From IMG/VR virus record IMGVR_UViG_2654587569_000003: DNA of 38,765 bases, one strand, 5' to 3'. How positions within the stretch are numbered: position 1 is the first letter of the stretch; each line of letters begins with the position of its first letter. This DNA is from a virus (Duplodnaviria > Heunggongvirae > Uroviricota > Caudoviricetes). The notes below the pieces were generated by a model. The model was not told the DNA's origin and did not search any database. It saw only the letters and a program-made list of their open reading frames with translations. A program made the translations under genes and the position numbers. Of this stretch, positions 5,870-30,346 are shown piece by piece.

Positions 5870-8427
5870 CGTCCACCTCCGGAGAACAGACCACCATCGC
5901 GCATCTGCCCGGTCACAACATCCATTGCCGCCTTACGGGCTACGTCATAAACAGCCTTCAGCGCCTGTGGCCCTATCTGCCCGTTCGTGCCGTCGTTGTT
6001 AATCACCACATGGTTATTCTGCTCAAACGTCCCGGACGCCTGCGACCGGCTGTCCACCATGCTGCCCGGTGTACCGACATAACCGCCGGTGGCATAGCCG
6101 CGCATCAGCCGGTAAAGATTCCCCACGCCAATCCGGCTGGTTGCCTCCTTCGTGAAGACAAACTCACCACGGTGAACAATCCCCGCTGGCTCATATTTGC
6201 CGCCGGTTCCCGTAAACCCTCCGGCCGCAAAATGGAATTTCGCCGCAGCGGCCTGAATGGCTGTACCGCCTGACGCGGATGCGCCGCCACCAACAGCCCC
6301 GCCAATGGCGCTGCCGATACTCCCGACAATCCCCACCATTGCCTGCTTAAGCAGAATTTCTGTCATCATGGACAGCACGGAACGGGTGAAGCTGCGCCAG
6401 TTCTGCTCACTGCCGGTCAGCATCGCCGCCATATTCTGTGCAATACCATCAAAGGTCTGCGTGGCAGCACTTTTAACCTGCGACATACTGTCCGTGGCGC
6501 TCTCTTCCCACTCACTCCAGCCGGACCTCAGGCCTGCCATCCAGCTCCCGCGAAGCTGGTCTTCAGCCGCCCAGGTCTTTTTCTGCTCTGACATGACGTT
6601 ATTCAGCGCCAGAGGATTATCGCCATACTGTTCCTTCAGGCGCTGTTCCGTGGCTTCCCGCGCTGCCTGCCGGTCAGTCAGCCCCCGGCTTTTCGCATCA
6701 ATGGCGGCCCGTTTTGCCCGTTGCTGCTGTGCGAATTTATCCGCCTGCTGCGCCAGCGCATTCAGACGCTCCTGATACGTGACCTTATCGCCAAGTACAG
6801 CCAGCTGGCGTTTGTACTCCAGCGTCTCATCTTTATGCGCCAGCAGGGATTTCTCCTGTGCGGACAGCTGGCGACGTTGTGCCGCCTCCTCCAGTACCGC
6901 GAACTGACTCTCCGCCTTCCACAAATCCCGGCGCTGCTGGCTGATTTTCTCATTCGCTCCGGCATGCTTCTCCAGCATCCGGAGTTCAGCCTGAAGCGTC
7001 AGCAGGGCAGCATGAGCACTGTCTTCCTGACGATCGCCCGCAGACACCTTCACGCCGGACTGTTTCGGCTTTTTCAGCGTCGCTTCATAATCCTTTTTCG
7101 CCGCCGCCATCAGCGTGTTGTAATCCGCCTGCAGGATTTTCCCGTCTTTCAGTGCCTTATTCAGTTCTTCCTGACGGGCGGTATATTTCTCCAGCGGCGT
7201 CTGCAGACGTTCGTAAGCCTTCTGCGCCTCTTCGGTATATTTCAGCCGTGACGCTTCGGTATCGCTCTGCTGCTGCGCATTTTTGTCCTGTTGACTCTGC
7301 TGCTCAGCCTTCTTTCGGGCGGCTTCAAGCGCAAGACGGGCCTTTTCACGATCATCCCAGTAACGCGCCCGCGCTTCATCGTTAACAAAATAATCATCCT
7401 TGCGCAGATTCCAGATATCGTCCGCTTTCTTAAACGCGGCCTCTGCCTTAATCAGCATCTCCTGCGCGGTATCAGGACGACCAATATCCAGCACCGCATC
7501 CCACATGGATTTGAAGGCCCGCGCTGTCCTGTCTGCCCAGGTCTCCAGCGTGCCCATGTTCTCTTTCAGGCGGCGGGTCTGGTCATCAAACCCTTTCGTC
7601 GCGGCCTCGTTCGCCGCCTGCAATGCCCCGGCTTCATCGCCGGAACGCTGCAACTGAGCAACATACGCAATCTGCTCCGCCGTCACGTTATGGAACTGGC
7701 GCGCCATCGCTGTCAGCCCCGACGTCGGGTCAGTGGTCAGCTTCCCGAAGGCTTCAGCGACCTTGTCCACCTCCACGCCGGATGCAGAGGAGAAACGCGC
7801 CACACTCTGGCTGATGGACGCAATCTGAGCCTCACCGCTTACCCCCGCCTTAACCAGTGCGCTGAGTGACTCGCTGGTCTGGTTAAACGTCAGCCCTGCC
7901 GCCAGCCCGGCTCTGGACAGGACCAGCATACGATCTGCCGTCAGACCCGACTGATTGCCGGAAAGGACCAGCGTTTTGTTGAAATCGGACAGGGTTGAGT
8001 TGCCCTGATACCAGGCATACGCCAGCGCACCGGTCGCCACCGCCAGCGAGGTGGCCCCCACCATCGGCAGGGTGATCGCACCGGCAAGCCCCCTGAACAT
8101 GGGGATAATCCCGCCGAAGGAGTCCTTCACCTGACCACCCTGTTGCAGCAGGATCAGCCACGGACTTTGCCCGCCTGCAAGCTGCGTGACCACGTCAGTG
8201 AACTGCGCAGGCAGCATACGCATGGCAGCTTTATACTGCCCGACGGAAATCCCCGCTTTCTGTGCAGCCAGCGCCTGCCGGCTCAGCGACTGTTCAACGA
8301 CTGCCGCTGTTTTTTTCGCATCACTTTCCGTACCGGAAAAATGACGCCTGACTCTGGCCATCTGCTCGTCAAATCTGGCCGCATCCAGACTTAAATCAAC
8401 GACCAGATCGCCTACCGGTTCAGCCAT
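5866..8427 (-). CDS. H: Tail tape measure protein H
   Basis: 853 aa, MAEPVGDLVVDLSLDAARFDEQMARV matches recalled lambda H; same length. Confidence 0.95.
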   Translation of the reverse strand: MAEPVGDLVVDLSLDAARFDEQMARVRRHFSGTESDAKKTAAVVEQSLSRQALAAQKAGISVGQYKAAMRMLPAQFTDVVTQLAGGQSPWLILLQQGGQVKDSFGGIIPMFRGLAGAITLPMVGATSLAVATGALAYAWYQGNSTLSDFNKTLVLSGNQSGLTADRMLVLSRAGLAAGLTFNQTSESLSALVKAGVSGEAQIASISQSVARFSSASGVEVDKVAEAFGKLTTDPTSGLTAMARQFHNVTAEQIAYVAQLQRSGDEAGALQAANEAATKGFDDQTRRLKENMGTLETWADRTARAFKSMWDAVLDIGRPDTAQEMLIKAEAAFKKADDIWNLRKDDYFVNDEARARYWDDREKARLALEAARKKAEQQSQQDKNAQQQSDTEASRLKYTEEAQKAYERLQTPLEKYTARQEELNKALKDGKILQADYNTLMAAAKKDYEATLKKPKQSGVKVSAGDRQEDSAHAALLTLQAELRMLEKHAGANEKISQQRRDLWKAESQFAVLEEAAQRRQLSAQEKSLLAHKDETLEYKRQLAVLGDKVTYQERLNALAQQADKFAQQQRAKRAAIDAKSRGLTDRQAAREATEQRLKEQYGDNPLALNNVMSEQKKTWAAEDQLRGSWMAGLRSGWSEWEESATDSMSQVKSAATQTFDGIAQNMAAMLTGSEQNWRSFTRSVLSMMTEILLKQAMVGIVGSIGSAIGGAVGGGASASGGTAIQAAAAKFHFAAGGFTGTGGKYEPAGIVHRGEFVFTKEATSRIGVGNLYRLMRGYATGGYVGTPGSMVDSRSQASGTFEQNNHVVINNDGTNGQIGPQALKAVYDVARKAAMDVVTGQMRDGGLFSGGGR

Positions 8428-18778: not shown

Positions 18779-19010
18779 TGTTCATTCCACGGACAAAAAC
18801 AGAGAAAGGAAACGACAGAGGCCAAAAAGCTCGCTTTCAGCACCTGTCGTTTCCTTTCTTTTCAGAGGGTATTTTAAATAAAAACATTAAGTTATGACGA
18901 AGAAGAACGGAAACGCCTTAAACCGGAAAATTTTCATAAATAGCGAAAACCCGCGAGGTCGCCGCCCCGTAGCCTGCCGGATCGCCGGAAAGGACCCAAT
19001 AAAATGATAA
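18779..19010. other. cos region; cosN 12-nt cohesive-end sequence at 18956..18967 (rc GGGCGGCGACCT), cosB towards Nu1, cosQ side at higher coordinates
   Basis: Plus strand CGAAAACCCGCGAGGTCGCCGCCCCGTAGCCTGCCGGATCGCCGG reproduces recalled lambda cos junction. Confidence 0.85.
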
Positions 19011-19205
19011 TAATTATCATTTATATAAATGCCATCACACATCCCACGTACACCATAAAACCACGACAAATAATCAATTTTGTCCAAGTCATGCATTAAT
19101 TGATCTGTGTCAACTTAACGTAAAGACATCTTAAGACAATACAAATCAGCAGCACTGAACACGGAAAAACACAATGTCATCAAAAAATAAAGCTTCCCAA
19201 ACCAG

Positions 19206-19346
19206 ATGATTAATCAAATCCATATTGCCCTTGAACGTAAGGGATCGGGTAATTTTTCGGCATGGGTTATTGAAGCCTGCAGGAGAAGGCTGGCAACAGA
19301 TGCAAAGCACCTGCGCCCGGCCAGCATGAAAAATAACGAGAAATGA
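19206..19346 (+). CDS. Small hypothetical protein (46 aa), possibly ribbon-helix-helix-like
   Basis: ATG 19206 to TGA 19346, MINQIHIALERKGSGNFSAWVIEACRRRL; short upstream ORF ends in ATGA overlap; no strong SD. Confidence 0.3.
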   Translation: MINQIHIALERKGSGNFSAWVIEACRRRLATDAKHLRPASMKNNEK

Positions 19347-19478
19347 ACGTTCGGTTACAGGAACCGGTAGCTACTGTCTTCTAACAATATTTCATCTTCA
19401 TATCCGGCGAAACAAGACTTTACCCTGCAGGGATGTACTGAATAGCAACAGAGTGATAATTAACTTCTGATAAAATAA

Positions 19479-19805
19479 TCAGGGTGCTGAAGGACTAAAG
19501 ATAAATGTTTTCTTCACGCCTTTACGCGGCTTGTCCTTCTCAAATCGCCATTTTGCCATCGCCTTTACAACCTGCTCATCAAACAGATGGTGCGGCTCTG
19601 AACGGATAAACTCAATTCGGGTGACAGTACCATCAGCACCAATATCAAACTTCACATCAACCCGTCCCTTTATATAATTTGCCGCGGCATAGGCCGGATA
19701 TTGTGGTAATGCCTTAACCAACTGTCGAGGCATATCTGTTTTATGTTGCGTACAGCCCATAACCAAAGAAGACAACAAAATAATTAACGGAAGATTTCTT
19801 TTCAT
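19479..19805 (-). CDS. Lipoprotein with TonB C-terminal-like domain (moron next to cos)
   Basis: MKRNLPLIILLSSLVMGC signal/lipobox-like N-terminus; then YPAYAAANYIKGRVDVKFDIGADGTVTRIEFIRSEPHHLFDEQVVKAMAKWRFE resembles TonB C-terminal signature; GGGA SD before ATG 19805. Confidence 0.65.
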   Translation of the reverse strand: MKRNLPLIILLSSLVMGCTQHKTDMPRQLVKALPQYPAYAAANYIKGRVDVKFDIGADGTVTRIEFIRSEPHHLFDEQVVKAMAKWRFEKDKPRKGVKKTFIFSPSAP

Positions 19806-19825
19806 TTTTATTCCCGGCATAGATA

Positions 19826-19842
19826 AGAATAAGTCTTATTCT
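19826..19842. promoter_or_regulatory. 17-bp perfect palindrome AGAATAAG-T-CTTATTCT upstream of the TonB-C-like gene; candidate operator
   Basis: Read directly; overlaps TAGAAT -10-like hexamer with TTGATG 19 nt upstream on minus strand. Confidence 0.4.
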
Positions 19843-20480
19843 AACAATGCAGCCCTGTCGGTCATCAATCCTCTGCTTAATGGCAATGACAATTATCCGA
19901 CTTAAATCACAAATCAGACACATGACATAACAGAGCTTGCGAGGTAACACATCGTCCGGTTTCTTCCACCATCGCACCGGACCAGCGACCATGAGGGGAC
20001 AACGCCGCGCTCCGTTAACACGGTAAACCCCGGTGTGTATCGTTTTTGATTATCCCCGCACACTCGCGCAGAGGAGTCTCCCTCTCGGGCTGTGGTCTCT
20101 GTTGATGCGGGAATACGGCGACGATACAGTGCATAGTTATGTCAGGCTAAAATGCCTTTATCAAATCTGGGTAACGCAATCTGCCATTGTTGGCTCCGGT
20201 TGTGGTGATGATGTCAAGCAAGCCCATCTTGACTATCTCAACTAGTCGATTCATGACATATGTCACATTTATACCAACCAGATCATTGCGTTGAGTTTAC
20301 AACTCAATAATTCTTGGTTGGACGTCAAGTTTTGACGGTATTCGGGTGGCAGTTGATAGCAATCTTGGAACCGTCCACCTAATAGCTGCTTGTGTGGCGT
20401 TTAAATTGTGGAGTGCTCGCAACAGAACTTTTCTTTCTTGTTTGCGAGCGATGTTTAGCAACTTTTAAGAGAGTTAAGTC

Positions 20481-20711
20481 ATGGAGTTTTTGAAAGAGCA
20501 TCATTTGCCTTCAATAATTTTTGGAATTTTTTCCGCCATTTTTTGGATTATTTCATGTTTTGCATCTTCCAAAGAACACCCACCAAAAACGGAACAAGGC
20601 AGTTTCTCATCACTGGGTTGTTTTAAAGCCATTGAAATACAAAGTAAATGGAATAAACGGGCTGCTTTTTGCGCAGCGTTAGCTGTTCTTGCTCAAGTAT
20701 TTAGCTTTTAG
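20481..20711 (+). CDS. Small two-helix membrane protein (76 aa), opposite strand to late operon
   Basis: Two hydrophobic segments; followed by intrinsic terminator; inverted repeat 20415..20449 upstream. Confidence 0.5.
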   Translation: MEFLKEHHLPSIIFGIFSAIFWIISCFASSKEHPPKTEQGSFSSLGCFKAIEIQSKWNKRAAFCAALAVLAQVFSF

Positions 20712-20728
20712 TTTCAAAAGTGTAAATC

Positions 20729-20765
20729 AGAACCACTCGTATAGCGGGTGGTTCTCTGTTTTATT
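20729..20765 (+). terminator. Intrinsic terminator after the small membrane protein gene
   Basis: 8-bp stem AGAACCAC/GTGGTTCT followed by CTGTTTTATT. Confidence 0.6.
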
Positions 20766-20827
20766 CGTGTTGCGACTAAAACTAACTAAAATCACGCATA
20801 TGAAAGATAATGGGAAAATTATCGCTA

Positions 20828-21265
20828 TCATCGAAGGCATTGCGTCCTAATGTACTCCTGCAAGTAGTTAACCTGCGCGGTTATCCTGTCGATTCCACTT
20901 CGGAGACGGTAATAATTGAGTTCAGCATCTGCTGTAAGTCCTGGGGTTTCTCCATTGCCCATGCCGCTGGCTCCGGTCGTTGACTTTGCACAGGTGGCGG
21001 CGACTTGCAGGCGCTTACGCCCAGCAGAAACATCAGCACGGAGACTTTCGATAGTCGCATTAGCATCAGCAAGCTCCTTTGTGTATCTGGCGTCAAGTTC
21101 TGCTACATCACGTTGCCGCTTCTGCATATCAGCGATGATGGATGTGGCTTTATCGCGCTGCTCTTTGTAGGCGATGGCGTTATCACGGTAATGATTAACA
21201 GCCCATGAAAGGCAGACGATGAGGCAGATGACCAGAACGTAGATAATCGCGGTTACTCTGCTCAT
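20828..21265 (-). CDS. Rz: i-spanin Rz
   Basis: [34 protein letters not shown] matches recalled lambda Rz; ATGA overlap with R stop at 21262..21265. Confidence 0.9.
20881..21066 (-). CDS. Rz1: o-spanin Rz1 embedded in Rz in +1 frame
   Basis: Internal start [20 protein letters not shown] lipobox then proline-rich [16 protein letters not shown]; start choice by analogy. Confidence 0.75.
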
Positions 21266-21759
21266 TGTTGCCCCCACAAACAGACTTCACGCTCAATCTC
21301 ACGGCGAGTCATCAGCCCTTTCCATTGCTTACCGCCAGCGTATGTCCAGCGCCGTAGCTGATCACATGCGCCTTTGATATCGCCCTGGTTTATTTTGCGA
21401 AGAAGCGTCGATGTTCTGAAATTGCCAGCGCCCACGTTGTAAACGAACGAGTAAAGAGCGCCGCGCGTTGTTTCCGGTATATCGACGTTGATGTACGGGT
21501 TTATTTGTCTGGCGACCGTGGCAAGGTCTTTATTCAGGAGGGCTTTGCATTCTGCTTCGGTATACGTTTTACCGGGCATGATGTCTTTTCCGGTGTGTCC
21601 GTGACATACAGTCCATACGCCAACGATATCTTCGTATGGTATGTAGCTGACACCTTCCAGGCCATCGTCACCACTCGGACCAGTGATGAGCACAGACGCT
21701 ATGGCAACAGCCCCACCACCAATAGCAGCAGCAACGGCTTTTCGTAATGATGGAGGCAT
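21262..21759 (-). CDS. R: SAR endolysin R (T4-lysozyme-like fold, N-terminal signal-arrest-release helix), phage-21 type
   Basis: 165 aa, [52 protein letters not shown] matches recalled R21. Confidence 0.9.
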
Positions 21760-21965
21760 TATTCACCTCTCGCAGCCTTGCGCTTATCTTCTTTAATCTT
21801 GAAATAAAGGTTTGTCAGATACGTCAGCAGGCCAAACAGCAGACTCCCCAGCACACCTATTGCCACCCACTGGGACGGAGAGACTTTGTCCAGCAGCTGC
21901 AGTAACCAGTATCCCGTCCCCACCGCTGACGTGGTGTATGACACACCTGTTGTGATTTTTTCCAT
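21759..21965 (-). CDS. S: Pinholin S, phage-21 type
   Basis: 68 aa, ..[43 protein letters not shown] matches recalled S21; single start, no upstream in-frame start. Confidence 0.88.
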
Positions 21966-22007
21966 CTGATGTATGTCTCCGTCACCGCCGACAGAAAATG
22001 AAAGTAA

Positions 22008-22046
22008 AGAAAAACAAAAAAGCCGCCAGTGTCACCCACTGACGGC
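22008..22046 (-). terminator. Strong intrinsic terminator about 45 nt upstream of S (tR'-like position)
   Basis: Minus strand GCCGTCAGTG-GGTGA-CACTGGCGGC then TTTTTTTGTTTTTC. Confidence 0.7.
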
Positions 22047-22221
22047 CAACGCCGGGAGCCGTGATTATGGCATTCAGGCTCTGCTAAAAATGCCAGATAA
22101 CATTCCGGCCAACCCCTGATTCAGGTTATAAATGACACAATATCTTGACAACATCCGTCACTGTCTGTCAGAAAATGTACTGCCAAGTATAAGTATCATG
22201 TGAAGTACATCTACCCGTTTT

Positions 22222-22258
22222 AGCCAGCGTCCTTCAGAGTGGGCGCTGGCTTTTTTTA
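22222..22258 (+). terminator. Plus-strand intrinsic terminator abutting the nanS-p stop codon
   Basis: AGCCAGCG-N14-CGCTGGCT followed by TTTTTTT; no U-tract in minus orientation. Confidence 0.6.
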
Positions 22259-24109
22259 TTATGCTGCCGGTGCATTTATCTCCAGCACCAGACTTTCTAT
22301 CTCAACGCCATACGCTGCATTTTTTGTAACATCCGTCAGCGTCAGCGCATTCAGTCCCAGTGTCAGACTGTCTTTTATAACCTGGAATGCCGGGCCAGCC
22401 ACTCCATTCAGTTTCGGAGTAACCGTGGCACTGCCGGCGGTGAACACCAGCTCCAGCGTCTGCCAGTCGTTACCGTAATCGCCGAACTCCCCCAGCTTCG
22501 TGTTTCCGGCTTTCCTGTGATGCATCAGATTCACTCTGCCGTCAGTGGTCTGAGTGAAGTAAGACATCAGGAACGGATTACCAGTACCCGTCATCGCCAC
22601 ATCATCAGGAACGGGAGCGTCCGTATACAGATAAATCCCCAGCCCGAACTGATTGTTGGTCAGTGCGCCTGAGAGGCGGAACTTACAGGTCAGTCTGCCG
22701 CCCTGTGTCAGCAGGGTAATTGCGTCATCCACCGGATGCATCAGGGACCAGGTTTTATTGCTCTGCTTGGTGATCTTAAATACACCATCTGACAACTGAA
22801 TTCCGCCATTCTTAATGCTCCAGCCCTGCGCAGCAGCATCTCCGGCTGTCGGCAACAGGGAGATTGTGCGTACGGATGCATCTTCAGACGGCCCCGATGG
22901 CGTGTCGCCGCCGGGCGAGGGTTTGATTTCCGGTGCCTTACCACTAATGAAGGCTAAGGTGCGACCGGCTACGTTCAGAATAGCAGTTGCCATACGATCG
23001 GGAATAATGCCACGACGCGCCCATGAGCTGAAATGCGTCGGGCGATTTGATGATACCCAGTTTTTGTTCGTTCGGGATGCCGAACCGTAATAACCAGACC
23101 CGGCAATATCAGGATCTTCTGACGGGTTGTTTGTCGGTGTATTAACTCCGCTACCATCGGTCATAAAGGGAACAAAATAAATCTGCTGGGATTCTTTACC
23201 TTTATATGCACCATATACCACTTCATATTGCGTACCGTGTTCTTGTTTCCACGCGTATGTCGTGTCGCCACAAATCCAGGGGACTGATGCCGGACTTCCA
23301 CCGTGACACTGCGCCGCCAGCCCGGCAAAGTCAGCACGGAACTGCTGTACCATTGCAAGAAATGCTGCTGGCTGCTGGGCGTAACTGGCATTCGTCATAT
23401 CGAATTCCCCCTGCATCCAGCATATCGCCAGCAAAACGTTTTTCGGGTTTTTCTGCAATGCTGCCTTCGTGCGGAAAAGCAGATCCTGATATAACGGCTT
23501 ACCCACTCCCCAGCGAGCCGAATCCTGACTGGCCCCCGTGGACTCGCTGAATGTCCCCTCCGTGCCCTGGGTGAATGCCGAACCACCACGACAGCATGGT
23601 ACCAGCAGGATCCCCGCATTATTAGGGATATACGGAAGCAGTTTTTTGGCAATATGTAAGCCCTGTCCGACACAGCCGTACTGCCCTTTGCTCAGGTCAG
23701 CCCGGGGATGGTTAATCGTACTCATATCCTGAACATCATGCAGACAATGGTCAGCAGGAATGATGTCGTTAAATACGCATACTTCACCACCGGGAGTCAC
23801 TGTGTTACGACGGGCCAGTTGCTTAATGCGCGGATGGGGCGCATCGTATGAATCCGGAAGCGGAAGCCCTTCACCGTAAGCCATGGCATTGGATTGCCCG
23901 GCCAGTACGATGACGTAGTACCACTCTGGCTCAGTTGCACCACTGACGACCACATCACCTTCTGCTGCAATCGCCTGCATCAGGGTATAAGGGGTTATGG
24001 CCACCGGACTACCAAACGGCTGCCAGCCCTCTTTCAGTTTATGTGTCAGCTTTTCCGCAAGATCTGACGGCGACGCCGCCCTGACAACATCATAGTGTTT
24101 AAATGCCAT
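22259..24109 (-). CDS. NanS-p-like sialate O-acetylesterase (N-terminal DUF1737-like region plus SGNH/SASA esterase)
   Basis: MAFKHYDVVRAASPSDLAEKLTHKLKEGWQPFGSP..VIVLAGQSNAMAYGEG; position between stx slot and lysis genes as in Stx prophages; start at second Met with GGTGGA SD. Confidence 0.8.
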   Translation of the reverse strand: MAFKHYDVVRAASPSDLAEKLTHKLKEGWQPFGSPVAITPYTLMQAIAAEGDVVVSGATEPEWYYVIVLAGQSNAMAYGEGLPLPDSYDAPHPRIKQLARRNTVTPGGEVCVFNDIIPADHCLHDVQDMSTINHPRADLSKGQYGCVGQGLHIAKKLLPYIPNNAGILLVPCCRGGSAFTQGTEGTFSESTGASQDSARWGVGKPLYQDLLFRTKAALQKNPKNVLLAICWMQGEFDMTNASYAQQPAAFLAMVQQFRADFAGLAAQCHGGSPASVPWICGDTTYAWKQEHGTQYEVVYGAYKGKESQQIYFVPFMTDGSGVNTPTNNPSEDPDIAGSGYYGSASRTNKNWVSSNRPTHFSSWARRGIIPDRMATAILNVAGRTLAFISGKAPEIKPSPGGDTPSGPSEDASVRTISLLPTAGDAAAQGWSIKNGGIQLSDGVFKITKQSNKTWSLMHPVDDAITLLTQGGRLTCKFRLSGALTNNQFGLGIYLYTDAPVPDDVAMTGTGNPFLMSYFTQTTDGRVNLMHHRKAGNTKLGEFGDYGNDWQTLELVFTAGSATVTPKLNGVAGPAFQVIKDSLTLGLNALTLTDVTKNAAYGVEIESLVLEINAPAA

Positions 24110-24369
24110 GGTTCTTTCCACCATCTGAAAAATAATTCTTTAAAATACCTGACATGTAATACAGAAAAAACACAAAACCATACCTTAAATAAAAACCTCA
24201 TCATCAAGCAGATATGCATGGATAAACTACAAGACGAGATATAAACCACCCTGCATTTAAATAAACAATAAACAACATCAGAAAAATAATTCTGCTCTAT
24301 GGTTTACAATCAAAAATATCATTTATACTTTTCAGAACATCACCAGCAAGGCATAAACAAGGAAACTAA

Positions 24370-24705
24370 ATGAAGTGGATTGTGATTGATACAGTTATCC
24401 AGCCATCATGCGGAATATCTTTTTCAGTCATATGGAGTAAAATAAAATTAATAATCTGGTATCAATCGGATGCTTTCTTACCTCCTGAAAGTATATTTAC
24501 ACTGACTCACACAGGTATCATGCTCAATAACAAAGTGCTACCTGTAACCATTTACAACGTAGTACCATTCAATAAAACATTCTGGAATTTAATCAAAAAC
24601 AGCCAGGAATGCCCTACAAATACAGATAACGTATTGAATGAATGCTTTAATAACCGTTGCACTCTGCAAATATGTCCTTATGGACTAAAACAACAAAGTC
24701 CATAA
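24370..24705 (+). CDS. Hypothetical Cys-containing protein (111 aa) in AT-rich cargo segment
   Basis: AAGGA SD 9 nt upstream; TTTACA-17-TACTTT promoter-like hexamers at 24303..24331; hairpin downstream; no recognisable family. Confidence 0.45.
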
Positions 24706-24740
24706 GGAGTTTACTCACATCTGACAAAATCAATATAAAC

Positions 24741-24760
24741 AGCCCCTCCGGAGAGGGGCT
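24741..24760. terminator. Perfect hairpin AGCCCCTC-CGGA-GAGGGGCT between convergent cargo ORFs
   Basis: 8-bp stem read directly; flanking U-tracts weak in both orientations. Confidence 0.4.
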
Positions 24761-25137
24761 GGAGAGTGGCGCTATGTGCCATTGCATGGTGCCGGGTGCC
24801 TCCCGGTGAATTCAGTACCAGCACCTGAATCCGCGATTATCCCATATACCTACTCGCTGATTGCCCCTCCGCACAGGTGGATTCACCATGCCAGTTTCTT
24901 TTAACAAACTCCCCGCAAACCAGACAACAGTCAACCGCCTGAATTGTGAAGTATTTAAAAATTTCTCCGGCTAACAGTCTGGCGTTTTCTTTTTCAGCAA
25001 CGGGAAAGCAACAACCACCACACCCGCCACCAGTACACAGTCAGCCAGCACTGACATTATCCGGCTGCTGCAATGCCATTCACAAAAACAGTAAGCAATC
25101 ACTTTTTACCGTAACAGGTGATAATCCAGATATGTAT

Positions 25138-25464
25138 CTACCCCAGATGAGTAATCCGAAGTTCATCCATACCACAGGTCCTGGCTATTCTGTTGTACTC
25201 CTGAACAAGAGCAAATAATTCTGAATTAGCAACCATGAACTCATCGCAAACCCTCTGTATAGCATCACTATTCAGAAGAATAACGTCTCTTCCCGAAAGA
25301 CGATCAGGAGTACAGAACAAAACTGTCAAACGGCTGAAGGCCTTTGCTCGTGCTGCATTGACTATATCAATACGCTGCCTAAGGATGAAACACCCCGACG
25401 CCTCATCAATATTCACTCTACCCACACCATATGAATGATAAATATTTAATACTGAAAAAACCAT
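25138..25464 (-). CDS. Hypothetical protein (about 108 aa from internal Met) in cargo segment
   Basis: ORF track entry; no convincing SD; AT-rich; no recognisable motif. Confidence 0.3.
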   Translation of the reverse strand: MVFSVLNIYHSYGVGRVNIDEASGCFILRQRIDIVNAARAKAFSRLTVLFCTPDRLSGRDVILLNSDAIQRVCDEFMVANSELFALVQEYNRIARTCGMDELRITHLG

Positions 25465-25601
25465 TAGACCGTATAACAAACACTCAATCAATACTTAACA
25501 GAACTTTTATTTTTGACAAACATATAATATTTTCAACAATATACTGAGCCAGGTATATTCCAGTATAAGGCTCTGCCGGAAGAAATCTGGAAGAATGAAT
25601 A

Positions 25602-25678
25602 TGGCGCGTTGTACTGGATTCGAACCAGTGACCGATTGCTTAGAAGGCAATTGCTCTGTCCGGCTGAGCTAACAACGC
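25602..25678 (-). tRNA. tRNA-Arg (anticodon UCU)
   Basis: Canonical cloverleaf by hand: acceptor GCGTTGT/ACAACGC, anticodon loop CTTCTAA, T-loop TTCGAAT, CCA encoded. Confidence 0.85.
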
Positions 25679-25691
25679 ATAATGCAGATAA

Positions 25692-25768
25692 TGGATTGCC
25701 ATCGGGGACCCGGGCCCCACACAGCCAGTTTCGAAAGCTGACGCTCTCTGCCGATGAGCTAATGGCGG
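25692..25768 (-). tRNA. Degenerate tRNA-like sequence (possible tRNA-Arg UCG relic)
   Basis: Good D-arm and anticodon arm (loop TTTCGAA) but acceptor has 2 terminal mismatches and T-loop is CCCGGGT. Confidence 0.35.
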
Positions 25769-25775
25769 TATGTGA

Positions 25776-25851
25776 TGGTGGCCCTTGCTGGATTTGAACC
25801 AGCGACCTGGCGATTATGAGTCGCTCGCTCTCACCACTGAGCTAAAGGGCC
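25776..25851 (-). tRNA. tRNA with CAU anticodon, Ile2 (ileX-like) type
   Basis: Acceptor GGCCCTT/AAGGGCC, anticodon loop CTCATAA, T-loop TTCAAAT, CCA encoded; resembles recalled ileX. Confidence 0.85.
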
Positions 25852-25900
25852 GGTAGCAGAATAATAATGGTGCGTAATTAATTCTGCAATCCCATCCGTT

Positions 25901-26950
25901 TCAAACGATTAAATCCTGAACTTCCCTGACTGTCTGTTCAAAACGTCCTGTCTCCAGCTCAACACCAATCGCACAACGCCCCAGTGCCATCGCCGCTTTT
26001 ACCGTTGAACCTGAACCCATAAAAAAATCTGCAACCAGGTCTCCCGGACGACTGCTCGCGTTGATTATCTGCTGCAGCATTTCTGCCGGTTTTTCGCACG
26101 GATGTTTCCCTAGATAGTACTGCACCGGTTTATGCGTCCAGACATCGGTGTACGGAACCTGCGCCGTCACACCGAAATACCGCCGCAAATTTTTATATTC
26201 ACTCAGCAGTTCCGTATACTGCCGGTTCAGCTCACTGTATGTGCTGACCAGCTGGTGGTGTGGCTTTTCCAGTTCCCCGCGCTGATGTTTTTCTGCCGCA
26301 ACACGCGCAAACAACGCCTGCAATTTGTTGTAATTACCCTCGTTCGGTAACTGCCACTGACTGGTACCAAACCAGTGCGAAGCCATGTTTTTCTTTCCGG
26401 TGGCTTCCGCTATCTGTTTTGACGTTATTCCCAGTGATTTACGCGCATCACGAAAGTAAGAAATCAGCGGGGCCATGACGTGCTGTTTTAGCTCGCGCCC
26501 CTGTGCCACATAGCCATCATCTTTCGGGCGATACGGTCCCTGATAATGTTCTGCAAACAGAATGCGCTCTGTTGCCGGAAAATACGCCCGCAGACTTTCC
26601 TTATTGCACCCGTTCCAGCGTCCGGACGGCTTCGCCCAGATAATGTGGTTCAGCACATTAAAGCGCTCACGCATCATGATTTCGGTGTCAGATGCCAGGC
26701 GATGACCACAGAACAGGTAAAGACTTCCGGCAGGCTTCAGTACCCGCCAGAACTGCGCCAGACACTGGTCCAGCCATTTCAGGTAATCATCGTCGCCCTC
26801 CCACTGGTTATCCCAGCCCTCGGGCTTCACTTTAAAGTATGGCGGGTCTGTGACTATCAGATCGACAGAGTTTTCCGGTAAGGTCTGGATAAATTCCAGG
26901 CAATCAGCGTTGATTAACTCACAACTGGATATTTTTACAGTATTAATCAT
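25901..26950 (-). CDS. Orphan DNA methyltransferase, beta-class N6A/N4C (motif IV DPPY N-terminal, motif I FxGxG C-terminal)
   Basis: 349 aa; LIVTDPPYF and DFFMGSGST motifs in circularly permuted order. Confidence 0.8.
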   Translation of the reverse strand: MINTVKISSCELINADCLEFIQTLPENSVDLIVTDPPYFKVKPEGWDNQWEGDDDYLKWLDQCLAQFWRVLKPAGSLYLFCGHRLASDTEIMMRERFNVLNHIIWAKPSGRWNGCNKESLRAYFPATERILFAEHYQGPYRPKDDGYVAQGRELKQHVMAPLISYFRDARKSLGITSKQIAEATGKKNMASHWFGTSQWQLPNEGNYNKLQALFARVAAEKHQRGELEKPHHQLVSTYSELNRQYTELLSEYKNLRRYFGVTAQVPYTDVWTHKPVQYYLGKHPCEKPAEMLQQIINASSRPGDLVADFFMGSGSTVKAAMALGRCAIGVELETGRFEQTVREVQDLIV

Positions 26951-27100
26951 AGATCAATAAGCACTTCTCTGATAGGCTCATACCGCTTTTGCGCAAAGCA
27001 GATGGGCCTGAGGTTTGCTTGTGACCCCAACGCATGAGCAGATGGCTGGCAGGTGCCGCTAACACCCACCAGCCGCCCATTACCACAAATTAAAAAGCCT

Positions 27101-27298
27101 TCACTGCGGAAGGCGTCTGTAACAACCGAACTGATAATCTGCCAGACCCGCCATAACAAGCTGAGTCAGTATTAACTGGCAGCGTTCGCGTGAAAGGTAA
27201 GTATTCTGCGCAATTTCCCCGACGGTCGCCGGTTCGGTGACGCTTAATTCATTAAACACCACTCTGGCGGTTTCGGTCATATCCTGCTGTTTTAGCAT
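27101..27298 (-). CDS. Small putative DNA-binding protein (65 aa from internal Met)
   Basis: MLKQQDMTETARVVFNELSVTEPATVGEIAQNTYLSRERCQLILTQL; HTH-like; lies after terminator and before methylase. Confidence 0.4.
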   Translation of the reverse strand: MLKQQDMTETARVVFNELSVTEPATVGEIAQNTYLSRERCQLILTQLVMAGLADYQFGCYRRLPQ

Positions 27299-27419
27299 GC
27301 TTTTTTCCCTTTTCCGGTTAACGTGACATACCAATACCTCTTGTCGAAAAAGCCAGCAAGCTGAAAGACCAGTATTCACAACTACCAGCGCGTTTAATGT
27401 TCTGTGCCGTTTTTCAGAC

Positions 27420-27446
27420 ATAAAAAAACCCGCATAAAGCGGGTTC
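27420..27446 (-). terminator. Intrinsic terminator about 100 nt downstream of Q-like gene
   Basis: Minus strand ACCCGC-TTTAT-GCGGGT followed by TTTTTTTA. Confidence 0.7.
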
Positions 27447-27529
27447 TTTCAGGTGTCCATGTCTGCTATTCGCCTCGCGGTATAGCTTTGCGAAGCGTAG
27501 CTGGATTGAAACAGTTTATGCGTAAAAAA

Positions 27530-28084
27530 TCAAGACATTTTTTGAGCAAACGATTCTCGCATAGGGATGTATAGCGCATATTCAGCAACAGCCAACCAAT
27601 TAGCAATTCGCTTTTCGCATGTACTAAAACACCATTCCGGGTGCACCTCATTCAACAATTCAGCCATTTTGCGTTTACTCATCCCCCGCCCTTCGTACCT
27701 TTGCCGCAGGATATCAATCAATCCAGGATAACGTGCAAGCGCTTTACTTATCACCCCATCAATGCGTAACGCCTCTGCATCAGTACAGTGAGACAACCAG
27801 CTCTTCTGTCTGCCAGCGATCATCTCTCGCAAGAATGCTTCCAGCTCTGGTTTATCAATCCCTGACTCCCTGATTCTACGCAGGGCTTCATTGATTGCGG
27901 TTTTTGTCAGTTTTTTGGATGCCAGCAACTGATTGAACATATTTCCTGGTTTGCCACCACCTATATACGACCAACGCCCCCACATCCGTAATTTCCCCTG
28001 GATCCAGACGGCTTCCAGCGTTTTTAGACGTAAATGCTCGCCGCTTTTGCCTGTAATTTCCGGGTATATCATATTTACGATCAC
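27530..28084 (-). CDS. Putative late-gene antiterminator Q-like protein (positional call)
   Basis: 184 aa; start overlaps rusA stop by 4 nt; followed by strong terminator; sequence family not recognised by me. Confidence 0.45.
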   Translation of the reverse strand: MIVNMIYPEITGKSGEHLRLKTLEAVWIQGKLRMWGRWSYIGGGKPGNMFNQLLASKKLTKTAINEALRRIRESGIDKPELEAFLREMIAGRQKSWLSHCTDAEALRIDGVISKALARYPGLIDILRQRYEGRGMSKRKMAELLNEVHPEWCFSTCEKRIANWLAVAEYALYIPMRESFAQKMS

Positions 28085-28446
28085 TCACTCTCAATTTTGT
28101 AAATCTTCACGCCCAGCCGTCCCCCAGGAACGCGCTGACCGCGCACAATATTGATTTCATCAAACTGCTCGTCGTCTATGAGAAGTCCGGCATGCGTCAG
28201 CGCATCCAGTGGTGCTTTCAGGATATTGTCCAGGTCACGACGACGTTTATCCGGTGGCTCTGCAATAATCTTTATCGCCAGCCTTCCGGACAGGTTTAAT
28301 TTCAGCCGCTGCTGGCGAACAATAAGCGCCACATCACGGCGATAACGCTCACCGGCTTTTGATACAAAATATGTGCTGCCACGACGTCGCCAGTAAGTGT
28401 TCACCGTTGGCGGGTAAGGCAAAACAAATTCTATGCGTTCAGTCAT
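28081..28446 (-). CDS. rusA: Holliday junction resolvase RusA
   Basis: 121 aa; LPYPPTVNTYWRRRG...DKRRRDLDNILKAPLDALT matches RusA family motifs. Confidence 0.85.
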   Translation of the reverse strand: MTERIEFVLPYPPTVNTYWRRRGSTYFVSKAGERYRRDVALIVRQQRLKLNLSGRLAIKIIAEPPDKRRRDLDNILKAPLDALTHAGLLIDDEQFDEINIVRGQRVPGGRLGVKIYKIESE

Positions 28447-29491
28447 TCATGCTTTCCACTTCAGGACACCCGAATTTCTCGCGTGCATTAAAAAACGAAT
28501 CAGCAACAACAGCTGGCTGCTCAAAATCTTTTACCCCGGCGTGTAGTTCGCTATGGCATTTACGGCACAGCGGAATAACAAACAAATCATCAGCCTTTGT
28601 TCCCATCCCTCCCAGTCCATGACCAATGATGTGATGCGGATCATCTGCCTGATTACCACACGTCATGCATTTCTGCGTTTTTACCCAACGCGTGTATACA
28701 GGCATCTCTTCCCGTCGTGGTTTCTGGCGCTGGAGATACTGAGCCGGTGACTCCGGATCAACGGCAATGCTTACCACCGTCTTTTCCTGTGGCGGGTTTT
28801 GCTGGTGGGCGTGAGGCAGTAGCGCAATATTTTTTGTGCGCTGCTTCAGCATGCTGGTGGCGGTCTGCTCTCCCGGCACGATGTCGCTCTCGCGGTATAC
28901 TGAGCGAATTTTTTCCGCGCGTAATCCCAGTGAACGACGTAACACCGTCTCCGGTAGTGCGTCCGCTACGTTATTTATGGTTGCCCACCAGGATAATTCA
29001 GCCAGCGATAATTCCCGCTCCTGCGTGCCATTCATTGCGTGGCGGATGACATCAATCATCCATGCTGACAGGTTTTGGTGAGCAAGCTGCCCGAGTGATT
29101 CGGAAGTCTGGTTACGCAGCTGGTTGTCGCAGTGCCAGCACAACACCATCGCGCCGGTACCGTAACGATGTATGACGGTTTCACTGTGATGGTAGTCACC
29201 ATGAGGCCACTGGCAGGATTTAATGTGGCGTAACAGCCAGTCAGACAATGCACCAGCACCACCAGCAGCACGAATCACCCGCTCATCGCTGAAAAATGGC
29301 AGTAATGATTTATCCTCCGCCAGCGGCTGGCGAACAGCAGGAACGACTCCGGACGGCAGACCGCGCATGCTTTTCGGTTCCGGCTCCACCAGAACTCGAG
29401 GGTTATGAAATACCTGCATGGATTCACGGCCCGGTTTTAGCACCACCAGCCCAAGTTCCGGTACCGGAACAGGTCGAAGTAATACCCGCAC
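28439..29491 (-). CDS. DUF968 / YdfU-like protein with C-terminal Cys/His HNH-like motif
   Basis: GTG start at 29491 with GGAGG SD overlapping upstream stop; CMTCG..DPHHIIGHGLGG..CRKCH motif; about 350 aa. Confidence 0.7.
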   Translation of the reverse strand: MRVLLRPVPVPELGLVVLKPGRESMQVFHNPRVLVEPEPKSMRGLPSGVVPAVRQPLAEDKSLLPFFSDERVIRAAGGAGALSDWLLRHIKSCQWPHGDYHHSETVIHRYGTGAMVLCWHCDNQLRNQTSESLGQLAHQNLSAWMIDVIRHAMNGTQERELSLAELSWWATINNVADALPETVLRRSLGLRAEKIRSVYRESDIVPGEQTATSMLKQRTKNIALLPHAHQQNPPQEKTVVSIAVDPESPAQYLQRQKPRREEMPVYTRWVKTQKCMTCGNQADDPHHIIGHGLGGMGTKADDLFVIPLCRKCHSELHAGVKDFEQPAVVADSFFNAREKFGCPEVESMND

Positions 29492-29492
29492 G

Positions 29493-29765
29493 TTACCTCC
29501 AGATGCGTTGCTGGAATGTGCGGGACGGACGCGGTGGGCGTTCGGAATAAGGGAGCCTGACATAGATTATCCAGTGACGATAATCGAGGCTGAGGGCTTT
29601 CTTAATCTCGTATCCGCGTCTGCGGTAGTTATGAATTAGCCATTCGGCCTGTTCTTCAGTACATGGTGGGTGTTGGTACCAGTCGGTTTTAAATGCGTGT
29701 GAACGCCGCCCATGCCGGATGGCAAGGTCGGTATCAGAATTGTGAAATTTGGTTTTGTGCGCCAT
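29493..29765 (-). CDS. Small hypothetical protein (90 aa), Rem-like by position
   Basis: ORF translationally coupled to DUF968 gene; lies between hok and ydfU-like gene as rem does in Qin prophage. Confidence 0.5.
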   Translation of the reverse strand: MAHKTKFHNSDTDLAIRHGRRSHAFKTDWYQHPPCTEEQAEWLIHNYRRRGYEIKKALSLDYRHWIIYVRLPYSERPPRPSRTFQQRIWR

Positions 29766-29932: not shown

Positions 29933-30088
29933 TTACTCCTCAGGTTCGTAAGCTGTGAAGACAGCGACCTCCGTCTGGCCGGTTCGGATTCGTACCTCGC
30001 AGAGGTCTTTCCTCGTTACCAGTGCCGTCACTATGACGGTTAAACAGATGACGATCAGGGCGATTAACATCGCCTTTTGCTGCTTCAT
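29933..30088 (-). CDS. hok: Hok-family type I toxin (51 aa), near-identical to recalled HokD
   Basis: Hand translation MKQQKAMLIALIVICLTVIVTALVTRKDLCEVRIRTGQTEVAVFTAYEPEE; AAGGAG SD; absent from track (under 60 aa). Confidence 0.9.
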   Translation of the reverse strand: MKQQKAMLIALIVICLTVIVTALVTRKDLCEVRIRTGQTEVAVFTAYEPEE

Positions 30089-30346
30089 AGCCTGCTTCTC
30101 CTTGACCTTTCGGTCCGTAAGAGGCTAATCTCTATGTGTCGCATAGATATGGCCTCAGATTAATGTTAAGCGTCTTGCAGGACGCGTAATGTTAACTGGG
30201 GCTTTTCTCTATCTGCCTTTTGGTGTTCATGCCTGAGACAGATAGCCTCAAGCACCCGCAGTCATTCTACTTAACTAAGATTTCCCCGCAAACCGTTTTT
30301 GTCCGGCACAGTAAATATCCAACTAAACCAATGGCGTTCGCTGTAT

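Follow-up and report, generated by a model that had tools for sequence, protein, structure and literature searches.

The 293-bp spacer between a sialate esterase gene and the holin gene S of a lambdoid prophage contains a terminator together with promoter-like hexamers, raising the question of whether the two belong together as a late promoter unit of the pR'-tR' type, as the initial annotation considered, or have separate roles. By the window we mean the whole stretch of DNA analysed, 38,765 nucleotides (IMG/VR record IMGVR_UViG_2654587569_000003), which is a lambdoid prophage with its late region on the minus strand. This region runs from the Q-like gene through a DNA methylase gene, tRNA-Met(CAT), tRNA-Arg, the STnc100 sRNA and the esterase gene into the spacer, and from there to S, a SAR-type endolysin gene, and Rz with embedded Rz1. 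The features framing the spacer are as follows:

27530..28084, minus strand: Q-like antiterminator gene (DUF1133, with a weak Phage_antitermQ match)
24731..24920, minus strand: STnc100 sRNA, just upstream of the esterase gene (123.6 bits)
22259..24124, minus strand: SASA/NanS-p-type sialate O-acetylesterase gene, a moron (Pfam DUF1737, SASA, and DUF6645; annotation in related phages)
21759..21965, minus strand: S, a class II (phage 21-type) pinholin of 68 aa with its ATG at 21965 (Pfam PF04971, E = 1.2e-32; ORF list)

Homologues of the Q-like gene with 80-83% DNA identity are annotated "antitermination protein Q", and an NCBIfam search of the Q-like, esterase, and holin proteins gave zero matches. 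The lysis cassette downstream of the spacer is of the phage 21 type; S here does not have the dual-start motif of S21. The order of Q, inserted genes, esterase, and S is the same in phage 434 and Stx phages as in the window; in these phages Q is normally separated from S by several kb of inserted genes. The STnc100 sRNA occupies the position where Stx phages carry stx. In the same prophage, a hok/sok-type sok antitoxin RNA (30086..30257, minus strand; 106.7 bits) and DicF (38296..38347, plus strand; 76.7 bits) indicate a Qin/Kim-like early region.

The minus strand ahead of S folds into the following elements, listed in the direction of transcription towards the holin gene:

22092..22109, minus strand: weak hairpin followed by ATTTTTAGCA, a minor terminator-like site (-7.5 kcal/mol)
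22021..22047, minus strand: terminator hairpin upstream of S with an 11-bp stem and a 5-nt loop (fold energy, covariation, phage 434 annotation)
22005..22020, minus strand: U-rich tail of this terminator, TTTTTTGTTTTTCTTT (sequence)
21976..21997, minus strand: second S-leader hairpin, enclosing the S Shine-Dalgarno GGAG at 21980..21977 (folding; matching RBS annotation in phage 434)

The arms of the pre-S terminator are GGCCGTCAGTG (22047..22037) and CACTGGCGGCT (22031..22021), separated by the loop GGTGA, and the stem, which includes 7 G-C pairs and has about -20 to -22 kcal/mol, ends ~55 nt ahead of the S ATG. The minimum free energy is -21.7 kcal/mol (z = -2.9 against dinucleotide shuffles), and the site ranks second-best among the 21 terminator-like sites in 19000..29500, a region where 9.2 +/- 3.4 are expected. 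Directly 3' of the stem the minus strand continues with the U run TTTTTTGTTTTT, T being present at 11 of the first 12 positions of the tail, whereas the tail on the plus strand, AACGCCGGG, has no T run, so that the terminator is one-directional, towards S. The strong minus-strand terminator that the initial annotation had placed upstream of S is confirmed by this 11-bp stem and its U-rich tail. In searches of Rfam with the whole window and in a permissive scan of 21900..22320, no family covers the spacer finding, the scores within 21900..22320 being at most 21 bits against thresholds of 39-99. A 48-aa ORF (21973..22119, plus strand) lies antisense to the terminator and is listed as the hypothetical protein H3V34_gp62 in phage 2B8; it is probably spurious.

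The exact spacer is found in 28 phage records, with the terminator sequence present in phages 434, 2B8, YYZ-2008, and H-19B and in Stx1a phages, and in 699 of 5426 complete E. coli genomes (median 4 copies, maximum 9). Since such near-identical copies give no power for a conservation test, we surveyed the relatives of the holin instead, starting from 80 IMG/VR loci plus 434, 2B8, JLK-2012, phage 21, and the window. There were 81 S21-family loci with sufficient upstream sequence, and these represent 43 distinct upstream sequences. Sites were called with our own hairpin-plus-T-run finder; a simple terminator scan missed the phage 21 sites. A hairpin with a T-rich tail is present in 40 of the 43 distinct sequences and ends 42-55 nt ahead of the ATG, or 71 nt in the case of phage 21, while two further sequences have a hairpin with a T-poor tail and one locus has a different context.

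The homologous hairpins diverge widely in sequence, as illustrated by GGCCGTCAG..CTGGCGGCT, GGACCATCGG..CCGGTGGTC, and GGGGCTGTCGG..CTGATGCCCC. Across 26 distinct S21-family leaders, 95.7% of the cells are paired, compared with 12-58% in shifted registers, and five of the ten stem pairs show compensatory changes on both sides. The compensatory cells number 17 against a shuffle mean of 5.9, a value reached by none of 500 shuffles. The pre-S stem has been conserved in evolution. What lies 5' of the hairpin, on the other hand, varies by lineage, being the 3' untranslated region (UTR) of the esterase gene in some and other ORFs in others, and therefore the hairpin belongs to the leader of S. Upstream of S21 in phage 21, and likewise of essD in the DLP12 prophage of K-12, there are terminator-like hairpins whose sequences are unrelated. 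In the curated record of phage 434 (OL657226), a terminator is annotated at 45673..45709 that corresponds to the pre-S element of the window, the two phages being 99.1% identical over 21966..22180 and the element having the same position relative to esterase and S. By its anatomy and covariation, the pre-S element is a genuine, conserved terminator, and one that has already been annotated in phage 434.

Most leader variants retain 4-6 T immediately 3' of the stem, and the U tracts of some homologous leaders are poor (TCCTGTTGTTG, ACTTGTTGTT); in the latter lineages the hairpin may be retained for another reason. Such weak U tracts would fit a reading in which the hairpin is retained above all as an RNA element in the leader of S, serving stability, processing, or translation control together with the Shine-Dalgarno hairpin, with termination being secondary. 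The covariation and the fact that the hairpin accompanies the S leader across differing upstream genes are likewise compatible with this, as is the second hairpin around the Shine-Dalgarno sequence, which is conserved in both leader types: it has a 9-bp stem in the window, and its equivalent in the other, Stx2-type leader has a different sequence (CTTCCG..CGGGAG). The enclosure of the Shine-Dalgarno sequence suggests translational control of the pinholin. We nevertheless consider a mainly non-terminating role quite unlikely, given the strong U tract in the window and the T run kept by most variants, the non-homologous terminators at the equivalent place in phage 21 and DLP12, and the behaviour of RNA in enteropathogenic E. 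coli (EPEC). EPEC strain E2348/69 carries the S leader of the window on its prophage PP2. In published RNA-seq, the esterase gene of PP2 has a baseMean of 102, the holin gene one of 3.5, and the endolysin gene one of 3.2, a ~30-fold drop across the spacer. The same data give 3879 for PasA and 11017 for PasD2, and the drop could alternatively come from convergent PasA/PasC transcription or from RNA decay.

PasC also bears on the promoter-like hexamers. Its strand is opposite to that of the esterase and holin genes (PMC8550237 Table S6), and the features on this side of the spacer are the following:

22180..22257, plus strand: PasC sRNA gene, whose transcription leads away from S and stops next to the stop codon of the esterase gene (PMC8550237 Table S6, identity to E2348/69 PP5, coordinate mapping)
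22145..22176, plus strand: probable PasC promoter region, with a perfect TTGACA (22145..22150) at exactly -35 of the published PasC 5' end
22222..22251: hairpin at the esterase stop, which on the plus strand is the PasC terminator and in the sense direction has no U run (fold)

Hfq RIL-seq led to the discovery of PasC, and northern blotting confirmed it (PMC8550237). From 21940 to 22330 on the minus strand, the window matches the pasC locus of EPEC E2348/69 PP5 with 100% identity, up to the end of the terminator T run. In PP5, ISEc13 is inserted directly after the TTTTTTGT of the terminator (~22012 in the window), where the window has the S leader and the holin gene. The 5' ends of PasA and PasC map to one alignment column, corresponding to window position 22180, and the -10 element of the PasC promoter is weak, being either TCAGAA at 17 bp or GAAAAT at 20 bp. 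A 2026 preprint by Zhu, Shabalina and Storz places pasA and pasC in the interval that separates the sialic acid esterase gene from the holin-lysozyme operon, names phage 2B8 as a pasC carrier, and describes PasD as related to STnc100 (10.64898/2026.05.13.724894); phage 2B8 is 98% identical to the window here. PasC is convergent with the esterase gene, is absent from Rfam, and is unannotated in RefSeq E. coli genomes that carry the copy.

Phage 434 and the PasA-type loci differ from the window by an extra block of ~155 bp just after the esterase stop, outside the terminator. This block (6580..6735 in locus L001, also seen in L004), which is present in phage 434, in Stx1 phages, and in the PasA locus and is missing at window position ~22240 and in PasC loci, includes a second terminator hairpin (GCCAGC..GCTGGC) and explains the PasA/PasC difference. 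Two other groups of prophage sRNAs were considered and rejected as counterparts. The anti-sRNAs AsxR and AgvB sit between a moron gene and the esterase gene, where the window has STnc100, and not upstream of S, and the multicopy prophage sRNA HnrS (EcOnc10-12) lies ~3 kb from the PasA-like EcOnc51 in Sp12 by Sakai coordinates.

The initial annotation had described weak TTGTCA/TTATAA hexamers on the minus strand as the promoter of the unit. Both hexamers are present, at 22151..22146 and 22131..22126, but as written they do not form a sigma-70 promoter because the spacer between them is only 14 bp; the pair is not reported by a sigma-70 consensus scan and scores -4.4 bits in the position weight matrix (PWM) scan. 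The minus-strand TTGTCA is the reverse-strand image, shifted by one base, of the plus-strand TTGACA, arising automatically because the plus strand reads TTGACA followed by A at 22145..22151. The hexamer region is thus largely part of the PasC sRNA gene, which runs divergently on the opposite strand. The pre-S terminator lies outside PasC and on the other strand, and the overlap with the hexamer region is limited to the PasC promoter region.

The same TTGTCA can also be paired with a different -10 element, TAACCT at 22128..22123 on the minus strand:

22123..22151, minus strand: candidate sense sigma-70 promoter TTGTCA-17-TAACCT (PWM 10.6 bits)

This is the fifth-best sigma-70 PWM match on both strands of the 38.8-kb window, and judged by its sequence it is a plausible sense promoter. 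The predicted start is at ~22117, and an RNA of ~100 nt would end at the pre-S terminator. The near-palindromic TTGACAA at 22145..22151 would then contain two -35 elements that overlap back-to-back, that of PasC on the plus strand and that of the candidate sense promoter on the minus strand, and if both were used, polymerase binding would be mutually exclusive. A conservation test of the candidate was uninformative, the copies of this spacer type being 95-100% identical.

Should this promoter, ~70 nt upstream of the terminator, be used, the pre-S terminator would also end a separate small transcript, and the spacer could be read as an independent sense sRNA gene, starting at ~22117, ending at ~22010, and divergent from PasC. 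The rank of the promoter speaks for such a gene, as do the predicted RNA, which is sRNA-like with two small hairpins and a terminator with a U tail, and the sRNAs held by the neighbouring spacers (PasC, STnc100/PasD). A prophage model for it is IsrK of Salmonella Gifsy-1 (PMC4825925), a promoter-terminator sRNA unit with a read-through form that reaches into downstream genes; the window unit has no sequence relation to IsrK, and its sense promoter is a candidate. Against an independent sRNA gene, the TTGTCA is a by-product of the plus-strand element, the -10 matches only three of six positions, and the promoter is missing from the other leader types that retain the hairpin. Hfq CRAC in enterohaemorrhagic E. 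coli (EHEC) Sakai lists antisense PasA homologues only (EcOnc51/52) at the spacer, with zero sense entries.

The RIL-seq data point in the same direction. Hfq RIL-seq of EPEC detects a sense spacer RNA from PP2 at 743482..743611, equivalent to window positions 22197 to 22067, in 774 chimeras with PasB, and one from the PP5 copy at 1290834..1290972, equivalent to 22255 to 22117, in 54 chimeras with PasB. In both cases the fragments begin at the esterase stop or close to it, ahead of any sense promoter in the spacer and of the predicted start at ~22117, and for this reason the sense spacer RNA is at least mainly read-through from the esterase unit, which fits the hairpin at the esterase stop having no U run in the sense direction. 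The sense fragments are, moreover, the first RNA in the chimeras, that is, target-like and not sRNA-like. Esterase transcripts hence continue into the spacer, and we regard an independent sense sRNA gene as unlikely.

The chimeras can be related to a predicted interaction site:

22147..22169, minus strand: predicted PasB pairing site on the sense spacer RNA, which at -23.6 kcal/mol ranks within the top 1.3e-4 of positions in the window

This site, which comes from a scan with 25-nt windows, falls within the RIL-seq chimera ranges of the sense spacer RNA. A full-length RNAduplex prediction of PasB against the spacer was discarded, giving unrealistic long-range pairings, with 65 of 300 shuffles scoring equal or better. 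PasB is the sRNA of a different prophage and is absent from the window. The predicted pairing may represent cross-prophage RNA regulation or sponging. A role of the spacer beyond that of a passive insulator can be imagined in two forms, either as the source of an undescribed sense RNA of ~100 nt whose -35 region stands back-to-back with that of PasC, or as an Hfq-bound sense leader or 3' UTR that pairs with PasB at 22169..22147 and lets co-resident prophages tune one another's expression of esterase or lysis genes; we would call this a long shot.

The remaining reading is that of a pR'-tR' type late unit directly before S, be it functional as a second loading site for Q or a relic. Hexamers, a short leader, and a strong terminator immediately ahead of S do resemble the arrangement in lambda and phage 21. 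Q loads at the promoter adjoining its own gene, and the pre-S unit lies 5.4 kb from the Q-like gene and hence not directly downstream of its cognate Q, as a pR'-tR' unit would. The canonical unit is instead found adjoining the Q-like gene:

27505..27533, minus strand: pR'-like promoter directly after the Q-like gene, TTGATT-17-TTCAAT (7.1 bits; assigned from its position)
27423..27449, minus strand: tR'-like terminator, ~80-110 nt past the Q-like stop codon (-15.1 kcal/mol, followed by a T run)

A short unit of this kind right after the Q gene is also what phages 21 and 434 have. The unit at 27423..27533 on the minus strand is expected to give a leader RNA of ~75 nt, analogous to lambda 6S RNA or StxS. 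A 106-aa ORF (27101..27421, minus strand) has the tR'-like terminator on one side and another terminator (27114..27097) on the other, and searches of Pfam and NCBIfam with this ORF returned no match.

In phage 21, pR', the Q-binding element (QBE), the start site, and tR' are annotated immediately after Q21 and are followed by two tRNA genes and then S21. The comparison with the phage 21 pR' region that the initial annotation had proposed shows no similarity by blastn between the pR'-tR' unit and window positions 21966..22330; the S leader and coding sequence alone match between phage 21 and the window, at 73%. Words of the Q21 binding element are absent from the window spacer, although the binding element of the window's own Q type may differ. 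The idea of a vestigial late promoter acquired with the phage-21-type lysis module is therefore not supported, and neither is the alternative proposal, that the spacer is the true target of Q acting at a distance, given the promoter-terminator unit at 27533..27423. The spacing of 14 bp between the hexamers, the location of the spacer after the esterase gene in 28 of 28 phage records and after the Q gene in none, and phage 434, which has the same spacer and yet has its pR' region annotated at Q, all argue against a late unit before S as well, so that we regard it as very unlikely indeed, whether as an active unit or as a relic.

Our preferred reading, to which we assign a probability of about 0.72, is that esterase/moron transcription ends at the pre-S terminator, which also insulates the lysis genes and is read through by Q-modified polymerase. 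The initial annotation had also mentioned an insulator that makes lysis need antitermination, and this proposal is supported by the anatomy of the terminator, its covariation, its recurrence before S21-family holins, and the ~30-fold RNA drop in EPEC. Located where the leader of the S-R-Rz lysis cassette begins, the element would act as an intrinsic (Rho-independent) terminator in one direction. Polymerases that arrive in the lysogen from upstream units, namely the esterase and other inserted genes, would pass the hairpin at the esterase stop, which would fail to stop them because it has no U run in the sense direction, and traverse the spacer as a 3' UTR of ~240 nt before being released at 22020..22005, so that S, R, and Rz would remain silent. 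Q proteins allow polymerase past terminators that block lysis genes (PMC3202840; also PMC7547250). Upon induction, the Q-like protein would modify polymerase at the promoter beside its own gene (~27500), and the modified complex would pass the three strongest sense-strand terminators between the pR'-like unit and S, namely tR', the STnc100 terminator (24761..24740), and the pre-S terminator, leading to the expression of the lysis genes. For the pre-S site, we infer both the termination of transcripts and their read-through with Q.

The logic of the pre-S terminator is an established lambdoid design and already known. The tR' terminators of lambda, 21, 82, and 933W are likewise intrinsic terminators between pR' and the lysis genes, and the pre-S terminator is expected to be overridden by processive Q antitermination in the same manner (PMC3202840, PMC7547250). 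It differs from tR' in lying 5.4 kb downstream of pR' and Q, behind inserted genes, and in generating no short pR' leader RNA. A second parallel is provided by the moron cassettes of lambdoid late regions, composed of promoter, gene, and terminator. Morons have their own promoters and terminators (PMC8065619), and the pre-S terminator would similarly end induction-independent transcription, here that of the NanS-p esterase; in contrast to a moron cassette, the hairpin of the window is linked to the S leader and is retained when the upstream gene differs. PasA and PasC (Pearl Mizrahi 2021, PMC8550237; 10.64898/2026.05.13.724894) and EcOnc51/52 in EHEC share the esterase-holin spacer with the pre-S terminator, but PasC is encoded on the opposite strand and uses a different terminator (22222..22251).

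The value of the analysis lies in the annotation of the window: a terminator before S, PasC as an exact copy on the opposite strand, an sRNA resembling STnc100/PasD upstream of the esterase gene, and the late promoter unit beside the Q-like gene. The covariation-supported two-hairpin leader of S21-family holins and the connection of PasB with the sense spacer RNA in RIL-seq are possibly useful for work on prophage sRNAs and pinholin regulation, with the overall picture unchanged. As an insulator, the terminator would explain how a prophage can express cargo such as a sialate esterase and sRNAs beside its lysis genes without killing the host, and likewise the strict dependence of lysis on Q.
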